The position numbers and the translations under genes are program-made. The notes under the pieces were generated by a model. The model had not been told where the DNA came from. It saw nothing but the letters and a program-made list of their open reading frames with translations, and ran no database searches. From assembly GCA_900552655.1 (NCBI GenBank), contig USAE01000001.1, forward strand, positions 3,392 through 67,391: a stretch of 64,000 bases of DNA, in the 5' to 3' direction. Positions 19,079 through 29,539 of this stretch are shown one piece after another (position 1 is the first letter of the stretch; every line of letters starts with the position of its first letter). Source of the DNA: an uncultured Clostridium sp. GTDB lineage: Bacteria; Bacillota; Clostridia; TANB77; CAG-508.

Positions 19079-21877
19079 TTATGCTTCTTCTTTTGATGTA
19101 TTTATTTTTAATAGTTTGAATATTTCTACTATTACTAGTGGCGCTAGTATTAATAATATTGTTTCTATTAAATTACTCATAGGTAAAATTGGTATACTAA
19201 ATATGTGTCTTAATGCTGGTACTAATAATATTACAAGCATTAATGCTGCTGAGCCACCTATTGCTAGCAATAGCATTTTGTTGTTAAATGGATGTGTTTT
19301 AAATATAGATTTTTTATTATTTCTAATATTAAATACATGTACAAGTTCTGAAAATGCTAATACTATAAACGCCATTGTTTGGCCTATTTCTACTTTTACT
19401 TCTTGTGGTTCTACATATTTGGCTCCATTTGCTAAATCTTCATCTAAATTTTCTACCTCTTCTACGCTATATAATGTTCCTTCTACTCTTACCATTTTTG
19501 GTAAATTTTCTTCTGGTGTAGCAAGACCTATTATAAATGCTGCAAGTGTAAGTAAGCCAATCATAATACCTTGATATACTACTCTAAAGCTCATTCCTTT
19601 TGTAAATATACCTTTTTGCTTATTAGGTTTTCTTTTCATTACATCATCTTCAGCTGGGTCTACTGCTAAGGCTAATGCTGGAAGTGAATCTGTTACTAAA
19701 TTAACCCATAATATATGAATTGGAAGTAATACTTCTATTAAACCAATATCTATTCCAAATGTGCTTCCAAGCCATGGTGTTAAAAGAATTGCAAGGAATA
19801 ATACTATTATTTCACCAACATTGCTAGAAAGTAAAAATTGTATTGCTTTTAATATATTGTCATAAATACGTCTTCCTTCCTCTACAGAAGATACGATAGT
19901 TGCAAAATTGTCGTCTGTTAAAATTACATCTGCTGCTTCCTTAGAAACATCTGTACCTACAATTCCCATTGCACAACCAATATCAGCTGTTTTTAATGCT
20001 GGTGCATCGTTTACACCATCACCTGTCATTGCTACAATTTCGCCATTTGCTTGCCATGCTTTTACTATTCTAACTTTATGCTCTGGTGATACTCTTGCAT
20101 ATACAGAATATTTCCTAATGTTTTTTGTTAAGTCCTCGTCTGACATTTCTTCAAGATCTTGACCTGTTATTGCTTCTTCTTCATTTTCAAGTATTCCTAA
20201 TGCTTTTGCAATTGCAACAGCTGTTATTTTATGGTCACCTGTAATCATTACAGTCTTTATTCCTGCGGTCTTACATTTTTCTACTGCTACTTTAACTTCT
20301 TCTCTTGGTGGGTCTATCATTCCAACCATACCAACATATATTAAATCATTTTCTATAGTTTTCATTTCGTCATCTGTTGGTTCATGGTCTAGTTCCTTAT
20401 ATGCCATTGCTAATACTCTTAAAGCTTCTTTTGCCATGCTAATGTTGTATTTATCTATTACAGATTTATAATTTTCTAAATCTGTTTTAATTTCCCCATT
20501 TACTGAATAAGAATTACATCTTGCAAGTAATTCATCAATTCCACCTTTTGTATAAACAACATATTTATCTCCTACTTTGTTTACAGTTGTCATTAATTTT
20601 CTGTCTGAATCGAATGGAATTTCTTTTATTCTTTTTAATTTTAAAATTTCTTTAACATTATATCCTATTTTAAATCCTAAATCTATTAGTGCTGTTTCTG
20701 TTGGATCTCCTGTTAATTGGTCTTCTGCACCAATTTTAGTGTCATTACATAATGTACATACTTCCATTACTTTATTTAATTCATTGCTTATTTCTTTCAC
20801 ATTTGCAACATCTTCTAAATTTCCATTTGCAAATATTTTTTGAACTGTCATTTTATTTTGTGTTAAAGTTCCTGTTTTATCTGAACATATAACTGTAGCA
20901 CTTCCTAAAGTTTCTACAGCTGGTAATTTCTTTATTATTGCATTTTTCTTTACCATTCTTTGTACCCCAATTGCTAAAACAATTGTAGATACTGCTGCTA
21001 AACCTTCTGGTATTGCTGCAACTGCTAAGCTTACAGCTGTCATAAACATATCTATTACATTTTTTCCATATGCAATACCTATTACAAATATTACTACACA
21101 TATTGCAAGGGCTGCTATTCCTAATGTTTTACCTAATTTATTTAGCTTTGTTTGAAGTGGTGTTTCTGTTCCTTCTGTATCGTTAATTATTTTTGCAATT
21201 TTACCAACTTCTGTATTCATTCCTGTTTCTACAACAATACCTTTTCCTCTTCCATATGTTATAAGTGAAGATGAGAAAAGCATATTTTTTCTATCACCAA
21301 GACTAATTTTTTCGTCTTCTATTATTTCTGTGTCTTTATCTACAGGGACAGATTCTCCTGTTAAAGATGCTTCTTGTGATTTTAGATTTGCACTTTCTAC
21401 TATTCTTAAATCTGCTGGCACATAGTCACCTGTATCTAAAACAACTACATCACCTGGAACTAGTTCTTTAGATTGTACAACACTTATTTTTCCATTACGC
21501 ATAACTTTTGATGCATGTGCACTTAACTTTTGTAGAGCTTCTAAAGATTTTTCTGCTTTACTTTCTTGTACTACACCGATTATTGCATTAACTATAACTA
21601 CTATTAGAATAATAATTGTATCTGTTATTCCTTCTCCTTCTGCAATTCCTACTGCTCCAGAAACTACTGCTGCTACAATTAAAACAATTATCATAAAATC
21701 TTTAAATTGTTCTAAGAATTTTACAAATAAAGATTTTTTCTTTTTTTGTTTTAATTCATTCATTCCATACTTTTCGTAATTTGCTTTTACTTGTTCGTCT
21801 GTCAAGCCTGTTTTAATGTCTGTTTGTAATTCTTTTTCTACTTGACTTATTCCTTTGTTAAACCAATTCACTTCCAT
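19079..21877 (-). CDS. P-type cation-transporting ATPase, type IIA/PMCA-like Ca2+ (or Mn2+) pump.
   Basis: 932 aa. ICSDKTGTLTQN (phosphorylation site), TGDGVNDAPALKTADIGCAMG, ten TM segments, and a PEGL-type motif (AIPEGL). Confidence 0.9.
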   Translation of the reverse strand: MEVNWFNKGISQVEKELQTDIKTGLTDEQVKANYEKYGMNELKQKKKKSLFVKFLEQFKDFMIIVLIVAAVVSGAVGIAEGEGITDTIIILIVVIVNAIIGVVQESKAEKSLEALQKLSAHASKVMRNGKISVVQSKELVPGDVVVLDTGDYVPADLRIVESANLKSQEASLTGESVPVDKDTEIIEDEKISLGDRKNMLFSSSLITYGRGKGIVVETGMNTEVGKIAKIINDTEGTETPLQTKLNKLGKTLGIAALAICVVIFVIGIAYGKNVIDMFMTAVSLAVAAIPEGLAAVSTIVLAIGVQRMVKKNAIIKKLPAVETLGSATVICSDKTGTLTQNKMTVQKIFANGNLEDVANVKEISNELNKVMEVCTLCNDTKIGAEDQLTGDPTETALIDLGFKIGYNVKEILKLKRIKEIPFDSDRKLMTTVNKVGDKYVVYTKGGIDELLARCNSYSVNGEIKTDLENYKSVIDKYNISMAKEALRVLAMAYKELDHEPTDDEMKTIENDLIYVGMVGMIDPPREEVKVAVEKCKTAGIKTVMITGDHKITAVAIAKALGILENEEEAITGQDLEEMSDEDLTKNIRKYSVYARVSPEHKVRIVKAWQANGEIVAMTGDGVNDAPALKTADIGCAMGIVGTDVSKEAADVILTDDNFATIVSSVEEGRRIYDNILKAIQFLLSSNVGEIIVLFLAILLTPWLGSTFGIDIGLIEVLLPIHILWVNLVTDSLPALALAVDPAEDDVMKRKPNKQKGIFTKGMSFRVVYQGIMIGLLTLAAFIIGLATPEENLPKMVRVEGTLYSVEEVENLDEDLANGAKYVEPQEVKVEIGQTMAFIVLAFSELVHVFNIRNNKKSIFKTHPFNNKMLLLAIGGSAALMLVILLVPALRHIFSIPILPMSNLIETILLILAPLVIVEIFKLLKINTSKEEA

Positions 21878-22029
21878 CTCTCCTTTTTTATATTATACAC
21901 AAAAAGCAAGACTTTAAAAAACTTTCTGTGTTTTCTAAAAGTCTTGCTTACCTAAATTAGGTTACTAACCAGAATAGTTCGAGTCTGTTGATTAGTAGTT
22001 TATAAGCTACTCCCTTTTAAAGTAGTTGT
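21878..22029 (-). promoter_or_regulatory. Structured 5' leader of the P-type ATPase, with an intrinsic terminator/attenuator just before the RBS. It is a riboswitch candidate.
   Basis: The minus-strand leader reads ...ACTACTTTAAAAGGGAGTAGC...ACTAATCAACAGACTCGAACTATTCTGGTTAGT..., then AAGCAAGACTTT-(21 nt)-AAAGTCTTGCTTTTTGTGT (a 12-bp perfect stem plus U-run, 21905..21949), then AAAAAGGAGAGATG. Confidence 0.45.
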
Positions 22030-22058
22030 ATTGTATCACTTAATATATTCTTTTTCAA
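22030..22058 (-). promoter_or_regulatory. Sigma-A type promoter for the ATPase leader.
   Basis: On the minus strand, TTGAAA (-35), a 17-nt spacer, then TACAAT (-10). Confidence 0.5.
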
Positions 22059-22096
22059 TATCTAATTGCAAAAATTTGTCTTTAAATAAATCTTTC

Positions 22097-22786
22097 CTAT
22101 TTAGCATATAAAATTAATCTTGCAGAACCATTTTGTGAACATGTTGCAAGTGTTATTTCTGGGGCACCACCTGTATCTCTAAACATATAATTTGTATCTT
22201 GTGGAGATGTTTCAAATTTATTATATATTGTATATTCTACTGTTACGCCATATAAGTCTGTAATATACACTTTATCCCCTATATTTAAATTCTTATTTTT
22301 AGAAAAGAATAATCTATTTAAATAATTATGACCTGCAATTACTGTATTACCTGGTTCATTCGGTCCTGGACCATATTCCACACATACGCCTTTTTCTAGA
22401 GCCTGTTTTGAAAGTGTAGATATAATTGGATATTTTATTCCTGTTTTTGGAATTCTTATATATCCACATATATCATAATTATAATATTTTTTCACACTTT
22501 TTTTAGACTTAGATTTTCTTGCATTATTCACTGTTTTAGCTTTATTTTTTTTAGTGTTTTCTCCTTGGTTTTCAACATTTTCTACTGTTTCGTCATTTAT
22601 TATATCTTCTTCTAGTTCTCCTATTTCATTTTCAAATTCTGCTATATATTCTTCCGAATCATCATTTATAATTTTAGCAGAAATAAATTTATAAGCTATA
22701 TAACCTGCAATGCATAATAACGCTATTAATAATATTATAAAAAAAACATTTAAAATTTTTTTATATGTTTCTTCTGCTGTACTCAT
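22097..22786 (-). CDS. Sortase family transpeptidase (class B-like) with an N-terminal membrane anchor.
   Basis: ...IPKTGIKYPI...GNTVIAGHN...PEITLATCSQNG..., giving catalytic H and TLxTC with C, plus an N-terminal TM. Confidence 0.8.
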   Translation of the reverse strand: MSTAEETYKKILNVFFIILLIALLCIAGYIAYKFISAKIINDDSEEYIAEFENEIGELEEDIINDETVENVENQGENTKKNKAKTVNNARKSKSKKSVKKYYNYDICGYIRIPKTGIKYPIISTLSKQALEKGVCVEYGPGPNEPGNTVIAGHNYLNRLFFSKNKNLNIGDKVYITDLYGVTVEYTIYNKFETSPQDTNYMFRDTGGAPEITLATCSQNGSARLILYAK

Positions 22787-22867
22787 TTTTTCCTCCTAAT
22801 TCTCGGGATTTAATAAAATTTAACCTTGCTAAATGTTCAAAATCTACCGATTTTTCCTATACAATAA

Positions 22868-22907
22868 AAATTTTAAAAGTGAATTGTACAAAATTACAAT
22901 TCACTTT
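22868..22907. terminator. Bidirectional terminator between the two sortase genes.
   Basis: AAAAGTGAATTGTA-caaaat-TACAATTCACTTTT, a 14-bp perfect palindrome with A and T flanks. Confidence 0.6.
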
Positions 22908-22929
22908 TAAACAAAAATCAATCTATGTA

Positions 22930-23601
22930 TTAATTAACAAGTCTTGCCCAAATTATAATTCTTGCTTTGCTATCATCTGTACAAGTAGTTAAAGATATTT
23001 CTGGTTTTCCGTCTGTATTTCTTTCCATATAGTCTGAATCTTCTGGAGTTGTTTCATATTTATTATATATTTCATATTTTAATTTATTTCCGGCGTTATC
23101 TGCAATATATATAATATCTCCATTTTGTAATTTGTAATTATTTGAAAAGAATTGCCCATTTCTATAATTATGCCCTGCAATTACTGTATTTCCTACTTGG
23201 TTTGGTCCTGGACCATATAGTTGTACTACAGATGTATTCATTGCTTTTGTTCCCATTTGCTTTAATATTGGAAGGTCTACGTTAGTTTTTGGTATTTCTA
23301 TTGCTCCCAAAACATCGAACCCTTTAAATTTCTTTTCACCTGTACCACCATTACCACTTGTGTTTGAAACAGAGTTAACATCCATTAGTGAATTAAAATC
23401 ACCTACAACATTGTTTGTTTCTAAAGGTTTTATTCCTGTATTGTTTCCAAATTCTTCTTCCATAAAAGCTTGAGTATCTTCTTCTAGAAAATATTTTGTA
23501 TACATTTCATAACCTAAAAATCCTAATAGTCCAACTATTCCAATTATTACAACAACTAATAATACAGTTAGTATTTTACTATATTTACTATCTATAAACA
23601 T
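22930..23601 (-). CDS. Sortase family transpeptidase, second tandem paralog.
   Basis: ...IEIPKTNVDLPIL...GNTVIAGHNYRNGQFF...PEISLTTCTDD..., the same architecture as the 22097 gene. Confidence 0.8.
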   Translation of the reverse strand: MFIDSKYSKILTVLLVVVIIGIVGLLGFLGYEMYTKYFLEEDTQAFMEEEFGNNTGIKPLETNNVVGDFNSLMDVNSVSNTSGNGGTGEKKFKGFDVLGAIEIPKTNVDLPILKQMGTKAMNTSVVQLYGPGPNQVGNTVIAGHNYRNGQFFSNNYKLQNGDIIYIADNAGNKLKYEIYNKYETTPEDSDYMERNTDGKPEISLTTCTDDSKARIIIWARLVN

Positions 23602-27319: not shown

Positions 27320-29539
27320 CTATATCATTTTTAGTTTATATTCTAATCCTGTGTTTCTTATTTTGGTATCTGCATTTTGTATCATAAATTTTACTACATT
27401 ATCATTTCCAATTAGTATTAACAATTTTTTAGCTCTTGTTAAACCTGTATATAGTAAATTTCTTGTAAGTAGCATTGCAGAAGATTGTGTTACAACTACT
27501 ATTACAACATCAAATTCGCTCCCTTGTGCTTTGTGCACTGTTATAGCATATGCATGTTCTATTTGGTCCATATCAGAAAATGCATACCATGCTTCCTTTT
27601 CATCATCAAATAATATTTTTATTTGTTTATTTATAAAATCTATTTTTACTATTTTCCCAATTTCACCATTAAATATGCCTGTTCCCGTTTCATAGTTTAA
27701 GCTAAGAGTATTTCCTTTCTCCCAATATATGTCGTAATTATTTTTAACTTGCATTACTCTATCGCCTTCTCTAAAAATTATATCTCCAACCTTTTTTTCG
27801 TTTTTCTTATCATCTGATGGATTTAATTCTTCTTGTAACTTTTTATTTAGTTCTTTTGTTCCTAAGATTCCCTTTTTAGTTGGTGATAAAATTTGAATAT
27901 TTTCGAAAAAATTATAATTGCCAAAATTCTCTAATCTTCCTTTACATAAAGAAATCAACTGTGCAAGCATTACATCTTGACTTTTTTCTTTTATATAAAA
28001 AAAGTCATCTTTTAAGTCTTTTTGTTCTTCTTTTTCTAAAAAATATTCTCCATCATTTACTCTGTGTGAATTAACAATTATTTTACTTTGTGCTGCTTGC
28101 CTAAAAATCTCATCTAAAAATATAGTCTTTATTCTTTCTGAATTTATAATATCCTTTAAAACACTACCCGGTCCAACAGATGGTAATTGGTCTGTATCTC
28201 CTACTAATATAAGTTTAGTTCCTTGGTATATTCCATTTAGCAAGTAATTCATTAGATAAATATCTACCATTGATGCTTCATCTACTATTATTACATCTGC
28301 ATCTATTGGAGCAACTTCATAATTCATAATTGTAAATTCATTTTCTTTTTCTATTTTTCCTATTTCTAGCAATCTATGTAATGTTTTTGATTCTTCACCT
28401 GTCATTTCTGTCATTCTTTTTGCAGCTCGTCCAGTTGGTGCACATAACACAACTTTTTTACCATGAGCTTTATAAATTTCTATTACATTTTTTATAATAG
28501 TAGTTTTTCCTGTTCCTGGACCTCCTGTTATTATTACAACATTATTAGAATTTACAGCTTGTATCGCTTCTTTCTGTTTAGAAGATAATTTTATATTCCC
28601 TACTTTTTCTATCTTTTCTAATTCTTCGTTAAAACCTGATATTTTTTTTATATTTTTTGCAGAATCTAATACTATTAACTTACTTGCAATATTTGCTTCT
28701 GCTTCATATAATTCTTTACTATAAACCCAATTTTCTTCTTCTCTTTTTTCTATAACAATTTCTTCCTTTACATTTAAATCTATTAAACAATGTTCTATAT
28801 CATCATATTCTACTTTTAAAAGATCTTTAACATATTTTATTAGGTTTTCTTCAAGTGTACAACAATGTCCATTATATGTAATTTTTAATAAGCTATATTT
28901 TATTCCACATTTAATTCTTTTGTAATTATTTATATCAAATCCATTTTCTAAAGCATATTTGTCTAATTTAGTAAAATCTACTCCTTTTACTAAATCTATT
29001 AAAATATATGGATTTTCTTCTATTTCATCTATTGTTTGTGGTCCTAATTTTTTGTATATATTTTTAGCATTGGCAGGGCTTATTCCAAAATTATCTAAAA
29101 AACCAACAATTTGCCAAAGCTCCCAGTTTTCTACAAAACATTGAGCCATTTCTATTGCTTTTTCCTTAGTTATACCCTTTATTTGTGTTAATTTTTCTGG
29201 TTCGAATTTGAATACATTTATTGTATCTTCTCCAAATAATTTTACTATTTTTTTTGCTGTTGCTGGTCCAATACCTTTAATTGTACCATTTGATAAGTAT
29301 TTTTCTAATGATTCTAATGTTTTTGGCATTATTTTTCCGAATGTTTCTACTTTAAATTGCATACCATATTCTTTGTGTGTAACAAAATTACCAATTACTT
29401 TTATGTAATCTCCCTCTACTAAAAATGGCATATATCCTACTATTGTAATTGTATCTTCTTCTGTTTCCAATATTCCTATTAAATAACTATTAACTTCATT
29501 TTGATATATTATTTCTGTTAGCTGTCCTGTAAGTTCCAC
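27320..29539 (-). CDS. recD2: ATP-dependent RecD-like DNA helicase (RecD2/YrrC family).
   Basis: 739 aa. Walker A VVIITGGPGTGKTT, LILVGDTDQLPSVGPG, and an N-terminal HhH region. Confidence 0.85.
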   Translation of the reverse strand: MELTGQLTEIIYQNEVNSYLIGILETEEDTITIVGYMPFLVEGDYIKVIGNFVTHKEYGMQFKVETFGKIMPKTLESLEKYLSNGTIKGIGPATAKKIVKLFGEDTINVFKFEPEKLTQIKGITKEKAIEMAQCFVENWELWQIVGFLDNFGISPANAKNIYKKLGPQTIDEIEENPYILIDLVKGVDFTKLDKYALENGFDINNYKRIKCGIKYSLLKITYNGHCCTLEENLIKYVKDLLKVEYDDIEHCLIDLNVKEEIVIEKREEENWVYSKELYEAEANIASKLIVLDSAKNIKKISGFNEELEKIEKVGNIKLSSKQKEAIQAVNSNNVVIITGGPGTGKTTIIKNVIEIYKAHGKKVVLCAPTGRAAKRMTEMTGEESKTLHRLLEIGKIEKENEFTIMNYEVAPIDADVIIVDEASMVDIYLMNYLLNGIYQGTKLILVGDTDQLPSVGPGSVLKDIINSERIKTIFLDEIFRQAAQSKIIVNSHRVNDGEYFLEKEEQKDLKDDFFYIKEKSQDVMLAQLISLCKGRLENFGNYNFFENIQILSPTKKGILGTKELNKKLQEELNPSDDKKNEKKVGDIIFREGDRVMQVKNNYDIYWEKGNTLSLNYETGTGIFNGEIGKIVKIDFINKQIKILFDDEKEAWYAFSDMDQIEHAYAITVHKAQGSEFDVVIVVVTQSSAMLLTRNLLYTGLTRAKKLLILIGNDNVVKFMIQNADTKIRNTGLEYKLKMI

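Follow-up and report, generated by a model that had tools for sequence, protein, structure and literature searches.

The yybP-ykoY family of Mn2+ riboswitches is represented in Rfam by the model RF00080, whose consensus places, in order, UUGGGGAGUAGC, a P2 hairpin, the P3 strand GcuUgCGUCA, the loop L3 (ACAUACU), a distal hairpin, UGGCGcAagC and P4. In the internal loop L1 of these riboswitches, G16, G17 and A18 are important and the GGA is needed for metal binding; on the 3′ side, AGA never varies, whereas the nucleotide in front of it does (PMC6649816). The family consensus of L3 is ACAUACU (PMC12153347); its C-A is absolutely conserved, and the A has a Mn2+-coordinating role (PMC12153347, PMC6649816). 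The C-G pair of P3 next to L3 is the receptor for an A-minor contact across the helices. The Streptococcus pneumoniae mgtA riboswitch (SN44) forms a three-way junction without P4, controls a PII-type ATPase and activates read-through in response to Mn2+ (PMC6649816). The alx riboswitch of Escherichia coli lacks P2 and also has a three-way junction; its L3 reads UCAUUAC, its switch is translational and pH coupled, an intrinsic termination site lies inside P4, its cargo is a TerC-family exporter and it is restricted to Enterobacterales (PMC12153347). Mn2+ riboswitches also precede CD2503, a P-type ATPase of Clostridioides difficile, and YoaB (written YaoB) of Lactococcus lactis (PMC11477304). 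Here we analysed 64,000 nucleotides (nt) of contig USAE01000001.1 from an uncultured Clostridium sp. (this whole stretch is the window). On its minus strand, a gap of 219 nt separates a sortase-like open reading frame (ORF; 22786-22097) from the gene for a P-type IIA cation ATPase (21877-19079). The leader in this gap is very probably a yybP-ykoY-family (Mn2+) riboswitch without P2 that acts as a transcriptional ON switch for the ATPase.

The leader contains the conserved cores of the family. Its 5′ core reads AAAGGGAGUAGC against the RF00080 consensus UUGGGGAGUAGC, with a GGAGUA on the 5′ side of L1 that is identical to the consensus; the family core on this side is GGGGAGUAGC. The P3/L3 core is AUCAACAGACU...UGG where the consensus has GUCAACAUACU...UGG, and L3 is ACAGACU(C), in agreement with the family consensus ACAUACU. 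The P3 pairs that adjoin L3 within UCA/UGG (U.G and C-G) are present and are invariant or nearly so in orthologs. The 3′ AGCnAGAC block agrees with the family core in sequence, order and pairing, and its AAGCAAGAC corresponds to AGGCGAGAC in E. coli mntP. A sequence-only reading of this DNA had proposed a metal-sensing riboswitch or attenuator here, possibly of the yybP-ykoY type, and the conserved cores in their order and pairing, the covariation and the terminator overlap described below bear this out. That reading had suspected a resemblance in AAAAGGGAGTAGC, which does match the consensus UUGGGGAGUAGC; the second conserved half, which it could not confirm, is present as UCAACAGACU...UGG and AAGCAAGAC.

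Helix P2 is absent from the leader, which consequently departs from the four-way junction (P1.2, P2, P3 and P4) of the family. A linker replaces P2, and the arms P3 and P4 stand on the 4-base-pair (bp) inner helix GCUU/AAGC in a three-way junction. The leader shares with the canonical four-way members (L. lactis yoaB, Bacillus subtilis yybP/ykoY and E. coli mntP) the L1 and L3 cores, the order of helices, a switch helix common to aptamer and expression platform, and cargo classes that include P-type ATPases. In the canonical elements, by contrast, the P2 hairpin spans about 20-25 nt and scores lie at or near the RF00080 threshold, whereas the leader has a 6-nt linker, AU-rich helices and no RF00080 score. 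Like S. pneumoniae mgtA, it has a three-way junction, a terminator just upstream of the ribosome-binding site, a PII-type Ca2+/Mn2+ ATPase as cargo and an A-rich junction linker (UNAAA in mgtA, U-AUAAA-C in the window). The two differ in the helix that is lost: mgtA lacks P4 (replaced by UNAAA) and retains P2, and the window leader lacks P2 and retains P4. E. coli alx (ygjT) resembles the leader in having no P2, a short linker from the inner helix to P3, the same L1 core and no match to RF00080. It is unlike the leader in other respects: the leader has L3 ACAGACU, with the invariant A first, a plain terminator platform, a P-type ATPase as cargo and a Clostridial host. The UCAUUAC loop, the translational pH-coupled platform and the Enterobacterales host that mark alx-like elements are thus missing here, and only the loss of P2 is shared.

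We built a covariance model, R1, from 65 orthologous Clostridial leaders only. R1 found E. coli mntP over its full length (locus L081, 2463-2573; 18.1 bits, E = 0.03), and the P2 hairpin of mntP aligned as a 14-nt insertion inside the window-type linker. R1 also found E. coli alx over its full length, with no insertion at the linker (locus L082, 4373-4500; 17.7 bits, E = 0.005). In each locus the match was the sole or the best one and lay at the position of the known riboswitch. Because the cores match and R1 finds both mntP and alx, the leader can be regarded as a yybP-ykoY aptamer with a linker in place of P2. A weak local R1 match elsewhere in the window (28970-28993, 17.2 bits) was a short hairpin with the outer helix only, and we discarded it as noise.

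To follow the element among relatives, we scanned with the ATPase protein, taking one genome per species, and obtained 80 orthologous loci from uncultured gut Clostridia with 69-98% protein identity. The element is present upstream of the ATPase at 68 of these loci, while the upstream neighbour among the orthologs that carry it varies between a sortase, a transfer RNA (tRNA) and other ORFs; in the orthologous metagenome locus L086, a tRNA lies directly upstream. The ortholog consensus is AAAAGGGAGUAGCUU-[6-9 nt A/U linker]-UACUAAUCA-ACAnnnC-[small hairpin]-UGGUUAGUA-[P4 hairpin]-AAGCAAGACUUUU. Across 65 distinct sequences, GGAGUAGCU, CAACA, UGG and GC-AGA are invariant or nearly so. On the 5′ side of L1, which reads AGGGAGUAGC in the window, every one of these sequences has GAGUAGC, and at least 90% of them have the G in front of it. 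On the 3′ side (AAGC-AAGA-CUUUU), AGA is invariant and is preceded by A or G; within the AAGC/AAGA block, the G and C of AAGC are also invariant, and conservation reaches 90% or more at each of the three remaining positions. The ACA of L3 is invariant in 65 of 65 orthologs. The linker is variable, 6-9 nt long and without hairpin potential in any ortholog.

Pairing was tested on a plain MAFFT alignment of 65 orthologs and on a realignment of 66 distinct orthologs to R1, each against 500 shuffles. In the MAFFT alignment, 90.7% of cells were paired and 12 pairs changed on both sides; after realignment to R1, 96.4% of cells were paired, again with 12 pairs changed on both sides. No shuffle did as well in either case (0/500), and on the R1 realignment, controls in which partners were slid dropped to 23-54% paired. 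The distal P3 hairpin and P4 were out of register in the MAFFT alignment, which was fixed by folding each sequence separately and by the covariance-model realignment. We observed compensatory changes in every helix. The outer helix had 94% of cells paired (changes GC>UG, AU>GC and UA>AU), the inner helix 100% (with a UA>CG compensatory change) and P3 99.7% (compensatory changes in three pairs: UA>AU/CG, CG>UA and AU>GC). The stem of the distal P3 hairpin also covaries (GAA/UUC, GAU/AUC, GAUAC/GUAUC; GCA/UGC, GCU/AGC, GCG/CGC). This hairpin is missing in four orthologs, suggesting that it is dispensable. P4 carries loop insertions of 15-55 nt in four orthologs (L007, 925-1067; L012; L025; L029), and because these leave the remaining aptamer unchanged, P4 seems to be a tolerant, variable arm.

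Folding of the window agreed with the comparative structure (Table 1). When the nascent transcript (22023-21930) is folded to its minimum free energy, -16.1 kcal/mol, it adopts exactly the proposed aptamer, and the leader is more stably folded than its shuffles (z = -3.97). By alignment, A21986 in L3 is the putative counterpart of the Mn2+-coordinating adenosine. Some of the short hairpins that the sequence-only reading had listed fared differently from others. The ACTAA...TTAGT hairpin is real and is helix P3 (UACUAAUCA/UGGUUAGUA), backed by the compensatory changes, but the inner stem CAGA..TCTG assigned to it is not conserved, and the conserved inner hairpin is GAA-cua-UUC. The CTACT..AGTAG hairpin is not conserved beyond the closest relatives and overlaps the likely transcription start, and its AGUAG belongs to the L1/P1.2 core. 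We likewise rejected a 5′ hairpin, CUACUUU...GGAGUAG, which minimum-free-energy folding of the leader had put forward, since its 5′ arm lacks conservation and is placed at the transcription start or ahead of it. A mini-P2 hairpin, GUAG...CUAC, was also rejected; in L029 and L053, CUAC changes to CAAC together with a change of its P3 partner from GUA to GUU, which keeps P3 and breaks the mini-hairpin.

Table 1. Features of the ATPase leader and its surroundings, listed in the direction of transcription (helix names: the outer switch helix is P1 in older papers and P1.1 in newer ones; the inner helix, P1.2 here, is P1.1 in older papers)
Feature	Positions in the window	Strand	Details
Sigma-70-type promoter	22030..22058	minus	-35 TTGAAA 22058-22053; 17-nt spacer; -10 TACAAT 22035-22030
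Whole aptamer, P2-less (three-way-junction) yybP-ykoY type, about 85 nt	21935..22021	minus	Model R1, 94.1 bits
Outer switch helix, 5′ strand UUUAAAAG	22014..22021	minus	Pairs with 21941-21935
L1, 5′ side GGAGUA	22008..22013	minus	Conserved half of the metal-binding internal loop
Inner helix P1.2, 5′ strand GCUU	22004..22007	minus	Pairs with AAGC 21949-21946
A/U-rich single-stranded linker AUAAAC, in place of helix P2	21998..22003	minus	
P3, 5′ strand UACUAAUCA	21989..21997	minus	Pairs with 21971-21963
L3 loop ACAGACUC	21981..21988	minus	ACA invariant
Distal hairpin of the P3 arm, GAA-cua-UUC	21972..21980	minus	Covarying stem
P3, 3′ strand UGGUUAGUA	21963..21971	minus	Covariation
P4 hairpin ACCUA-auu-UAGGU	21950..21962	minus	Four modelled pairs covary
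P1.2 3′ strand AAGC and L1 3′ side AAGA	21942..21949	minus	AAGC 21949-21946; AAGA 21945-21942
Outer switch helix, 3′ strand CUUUUAG	21935..21941	minus	Common to the terminator 5′ arm
Intrinsic terminator	21897..21949	minus	Stem-loop 21949-21904, -18.7 kcal/mol; U-tract UUUUUGUGU 21905-21897
Conserved -10-like TATAAT box right after the U-tract	21892..21897	minus	
Shine-Dalgarno sequence AGGAGAG and likely start codon GTG	21869..21884	minus	Shine-Dalgarno 21884-21878; GTG 21871-21869
P-type IIA cation ATPase, PMR1/SERCA/LMCA1-like Ca2+/Mn2+ pump	19079..21877	minus	Profile matches

The aptamer overlaps an intrinsic terminator. The 12-bp hairpin and U-tract that had been noticed between the promoter and the Shine-Dalgarno sequence are present as described: the arms of 12 bp, AAGCAAGACTTT/AAAGTCTTGCTT, are joined by an inner stem, the U-tract UUUUUGUGU follows, and the terminator ends about 27 nt before the ATPase start codon. 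Its 5′ arm (AAGCAAGACUUUUAG...) consists of the 3′ halves of P1.2, L1 and the outer helix (P1.1). The full leader prefers the terminator fold, at -31.2 kcal/mol versus -13.6 kcal/mol for the closed aptamer. In 65 of 69 instances, the terminator 5′ arm starts in the 3′ strand of the aptamer and a U-tract follows, even as the loop and distal stem sequences differ. The alternative pairing of the 3′ half of the switch helix with the expression platform, a hallmark of the family, was therefore found in the window and in those 65 instances.

Such an overlap of aptamer and terminator is the classic design of a Mn2+ ON switch, which acts by antitermination. In the mechanism that we infer from it, the first ~85 nt of the transcript would fold into the aptamer. 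At high Mn2+, the ion would bridge L1 and L3 and dock both legs; docking would lock the switch helix, making its 3′ strand AAGCAAGACUUUUAG unavailable for the terminator, and read-through into the ATPase gene would allow the pump to export the surplus cation. At low Mn2+, AAGCAAGACUUUUAG would pair with AAAGUCUUGCUU, and the resulting terminator would halt transcription ahead of the start codon. Metal binding by the leader and the direction of regulation are predicted by homology. The ligand is most likely Mn2+, with Ca2+ cross-sensing possible given the type of pump and the S. pneumoniae precedent.

A -10-like box follows the terminator. Such a box lies within 30 nt of the terminator in 44 of 59 distinct leaders, compared with about 35% expected from background. 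As TATAAT or CATAAT it occupies the same position in the orthologous leaders (L002-L080), often within TTTTTGTAtATAAT or TTAATTGTATAAT. In the window, no good -35 element lies 16-18 nt from the TATAAT box. The box may serve as a weak bypass promoter, signal a pause or set the efficiency of termination.

The promoter proposed by the sequence-only reading (TTGAAA, 17 nt, TACAAT) was borne out as a strong site at 22058-22030 of the minus strand, with an extended -10 TG at 22038-22037. It scores 10/12, joint top with two other sites in a promoter scan of 6 kb, and many orthologs have a comparable TTGxxx-17 nt-TG-n-TAxxAT promoter 8-35 nt upstream of the aptamer. Transcription of the leader probably starts near 22023, about 7 nt past TACAAT. 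The ORF finder placed the ATPase start at the ATG at 21877, which is not conserved among orthologs (it is ATA in L004). The closest orthologs do retain a GTG or TTG that lies 6 nt further downstream and has better spacing from the Shine-Dalgarno sequence. Because the ATG is not conserved and the GTG/TTG is kept, the GTG at 21871 appears the likelier start. The ATPase scores highest with the Ca2+-pump profiles TIGR01522 (PMR1-type; 727.6 bits) and TIGR01116 (SERCA-type; 649.8 bits), and among its solved relatives the Listeria Ca2+-ATPase LMCA1 matches best (E = 7e-214). Some orthologs (L012, L018, L020, L025, L043, L048 and L050) have spacers of 130-420 nt between the terminator and the ATPase start. 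These long-spacer orthologs contain a second set of inverted repeats with GGGAC...GTCCC just upstream of the Shine-Dalgarno sequence, for example GCCTGTCCCCAATT and GACACAAAAGGA...TCCTTTTTGTGTC, which might form another regulatory hairpin or else represent a repeat element.

To look for P2-less relatives more widely, we scanned metagenomes with the pattern GGAGTAGC-N8-20-TCAACA-N20-50-AGCRAGAC. The scan returned at least 119 stretches, of which we read 80 (L083-L162); these loci, sampled from gut, soil, sludge and sediment, range from 24 to 68% G+C. Of the 80, about 62 hold real aptamers whose platforms are terminators or lie close to a ribosome-binding site, and about 18 are false positives in coding sequences (the CATCTTCTC and GACGACGACG groups), which we discarded. 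Among the matches listed, the first downstream ORF encodes a P-type ATPase in 34 cases, GDT1/UPF0016 in 15, TerC in two, and MntP and Na_Ca_ex in one each. Genes for Mn2+/Ca2+ efflux are therefore found downstream both in the window, with its P-type IIA ATPase, and in the relatives, with P-type ATPase, GDT1, TerC and MntP genes. In two loci, the ortholog L033 (2002-3001) and L151, the first gene after the riboswitch instead encodes a HAD-family phosphatase of ~270 amino acids (Pfam UMPH-1, a pyrimidine 5′-nucleotidase-like family), which Mn2+ riboswitches do not usually have as their first cargo; the ATPase gene of L033 follows this phosphatase gene.

R1 detected 48 of 50 metagenome loci tested. 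RF00080, run on 20 metagenome loci, matched four at 33-35 bits, all below its gathering threshold, and none of the AT-rich ones. In an alignment of 48 diverse metagenome examples, 95.5% of cells were paired, compared with 74.6% in shuffles, and no shuffle did as well (0/500). There were 271 doubly changed cells, and the covariation score was 0.615 versus 0.213. In this set, five of seven pairs of the outer helix covary across phyla, as do seven of nine pairs of P3; for P4, all four modelled pairs covary in the orthologs and in the metagenome set alike. The P3 pairs adjoining L3 are U.G in 47 and C-G in 48 of the 48 P2-less examples.

Some observations weigh against the identification of the leader as a yybP-ykoY riboswitch that switches the ATPase on. 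RF00080 is unmatched in the leader even at E ≤ 10 (Rfam 15; slices of 421 nt and 96 nt). R1 reaches only modest E-values on the E. coli loci, and its calibration is rough. The distal hairpin of the P3 arm has only 3 bp here, and L3 has 8 nt rather than 7. The TATAAT box after the terminator might permit transcription that is independent of the riboswitch, and the signal could include Ca2+, because the closest solved relative of the pump is the Ca2+-ATPase LMCA1. On the first of these points, the Rfam scan that the sequence-only reading had suggested as a check (RF00080, M-box and NiCo) gave no match in the leader. At the gathering threshold, the whole window matched no model in Rfam 15, including those for the M-box (Mg2+), NiCo/czcD and Li+/Na+ riboswitches, and at E ≤ 10 the leader yielded only noise (microRNA, small RNA and small nucleolar RNA models). 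As controls, we ran RF00080 on validated riboswitches of E. coli: mntP (L081, 2468-2558) scores 44.9 bits, under the gathering threshold of 45, and alx gives no match at E ≤ 10. Because RF00080 misses alx and scores mntP just under threshold, its failure to match the leader is not a refutation. With the metagenome controls also below threshold or unmatched, we conclude that the RF00080 threshold is insensitive for P2-less members. The model as printed stops after P4 and leaves out the conserved 3′ AGCGAGAC strand. The sequence-only reading had named the lack of any Rfam hit together with a lack of conservation in orthologous ATPase loci as grounds for giving up the riboswitch; the Rfam hit is lacking, but the leader is very strongly conserved in the orthologs (68 of 80 loci).

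The nature of the signal is the point on which another reading of the same fold and logic has to be weighed. In that reading, the leader would respond physiologically to Ca2+, or to divalent cations generally, rather than to Mn2+, and the P2-less AT-rich subclass would be a Ca2+-responsive switch for a Ca2+ pump. The similarity of the ATPase to LMCA1 and SERCA would fit this, as would the single P2-less relative, among the matches listed, that lies upstream of a Na_Ca_ex exchanger gene. However, other P2-less relatives front GDT1, TerC and MntP, the classic Mn2+ efflux genes, and L1 and L3 retain the cores of the Mn2+ consensus without change, also in the ACA that holds the Mn2+-coordinating adenosine. 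Pumps of the PMR1/SPCA type transport Mn2+ too. The S. pneumoniae precedent points both ways: in vitro, the mgtA aptamer has a higher affinity for Ca2+ than for Mn2+, but read-through is far better activated by Mn2+ than by Ca2+ despite these affinities (PMC6649816). We therefore consider Ca2+ an unlikely physiological ligand.

Two further readings concern the terminator. The hairpin might sense no ligand and simply terminate the sortase gene or a short constitutive transcript, with the ATPase transcribed from the TATAAT box at 21897-21892. The sortase ORF does end at 22097 with no other terminator nearby, and the -10-like box is enriched after the U-tract as described above. The aptamer is, however, separated from the sortase gene by a strong promoter, and aptamer and terminator accompany the ATPase even behind a tRNA or an unrelated ORF. 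The TATAAT box lacks an acceptable -35 element at 16-18 nt, and a transcript from it would start only ~5 nt before the Shine-Dalgarno sequence. Nor would a plain terminator account for the invariant nucleotides of the loops or for the compensatory changes seen in four helices, and we regard this reading as the least probable of those considered here. Slightly less improbable, yet still very doubtful, is that the terminated leader of ~125 nt acts in trans as a small RNA, besides or instead of control in cis. In other bacteria, transcripts that end at a riboswitch terminator do build up as small RNAs. The mgtA leader of S. pneumoniae itself entered the catalogues as the small RNA SN44 (PMC6649816), and an interplay of small RNA and riboswitch is reported for a yybP-ykoY element in Staphylococcus aureus (bioRxiv 10.1101/2024.09.30.615890). 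Against a role in trans, conservation is limited to the aptamer cores and the switch pairing, the terminator loop varies freely, and the element always lies immediately upstream of its cargo gene; complementarity to a target was not noticed either, though no search aimed at it was made.

Upstream of the leader, the window contains two tandem sortase-family genes (22097-23601, minus strand) of 229 and 223 amino acids, with weak matches to classes C and E. A 17-bp terminator-like hairpin (22911-22872) between them overlaps promoter-like sites on both strands.

The leader belongs to a known riboswitch family and combines a known architectural variation, the absence of P2, with a standard terminator platform and a standard cargo. 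A Mn2+ riboswitch that controls a cation-efflux P-type ATPase is an expected circuit, documented in Lactococcus, Streptococcus and C. difficile. A more far-reaching proposal, to which we give little credence, is that P2-less terminator-coupled aptamers form a distinct, widespread subclass systematically missed by annotation, whose tuning in AT-rich gut Clostridia with an LMCA1-like pump may have shifted to Ca2+ or to mixed Mn2+/Ca2+. If such a shift were true, this would be the first natural riboswitch with Ca2+ as its physiological signal. Discussion of the P2-less three-way junction has so far centred on alx, which is specific to Enterobacterales, whereas here the junction is common outside that order, with a standard L3 and a plain terminator. 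The main added value of the analysis is to show that Mn2+ riboswitches without P2 systematically escape the current Rfam model; a better model of the family could be seeded from the two alignments, with their 66 orthologous and 48 diverse sequences. Because RF00080 is blind to the P2-less form, Mn2+ regulons are under-annotated in gut Clostridia and in many environmental bacteria.

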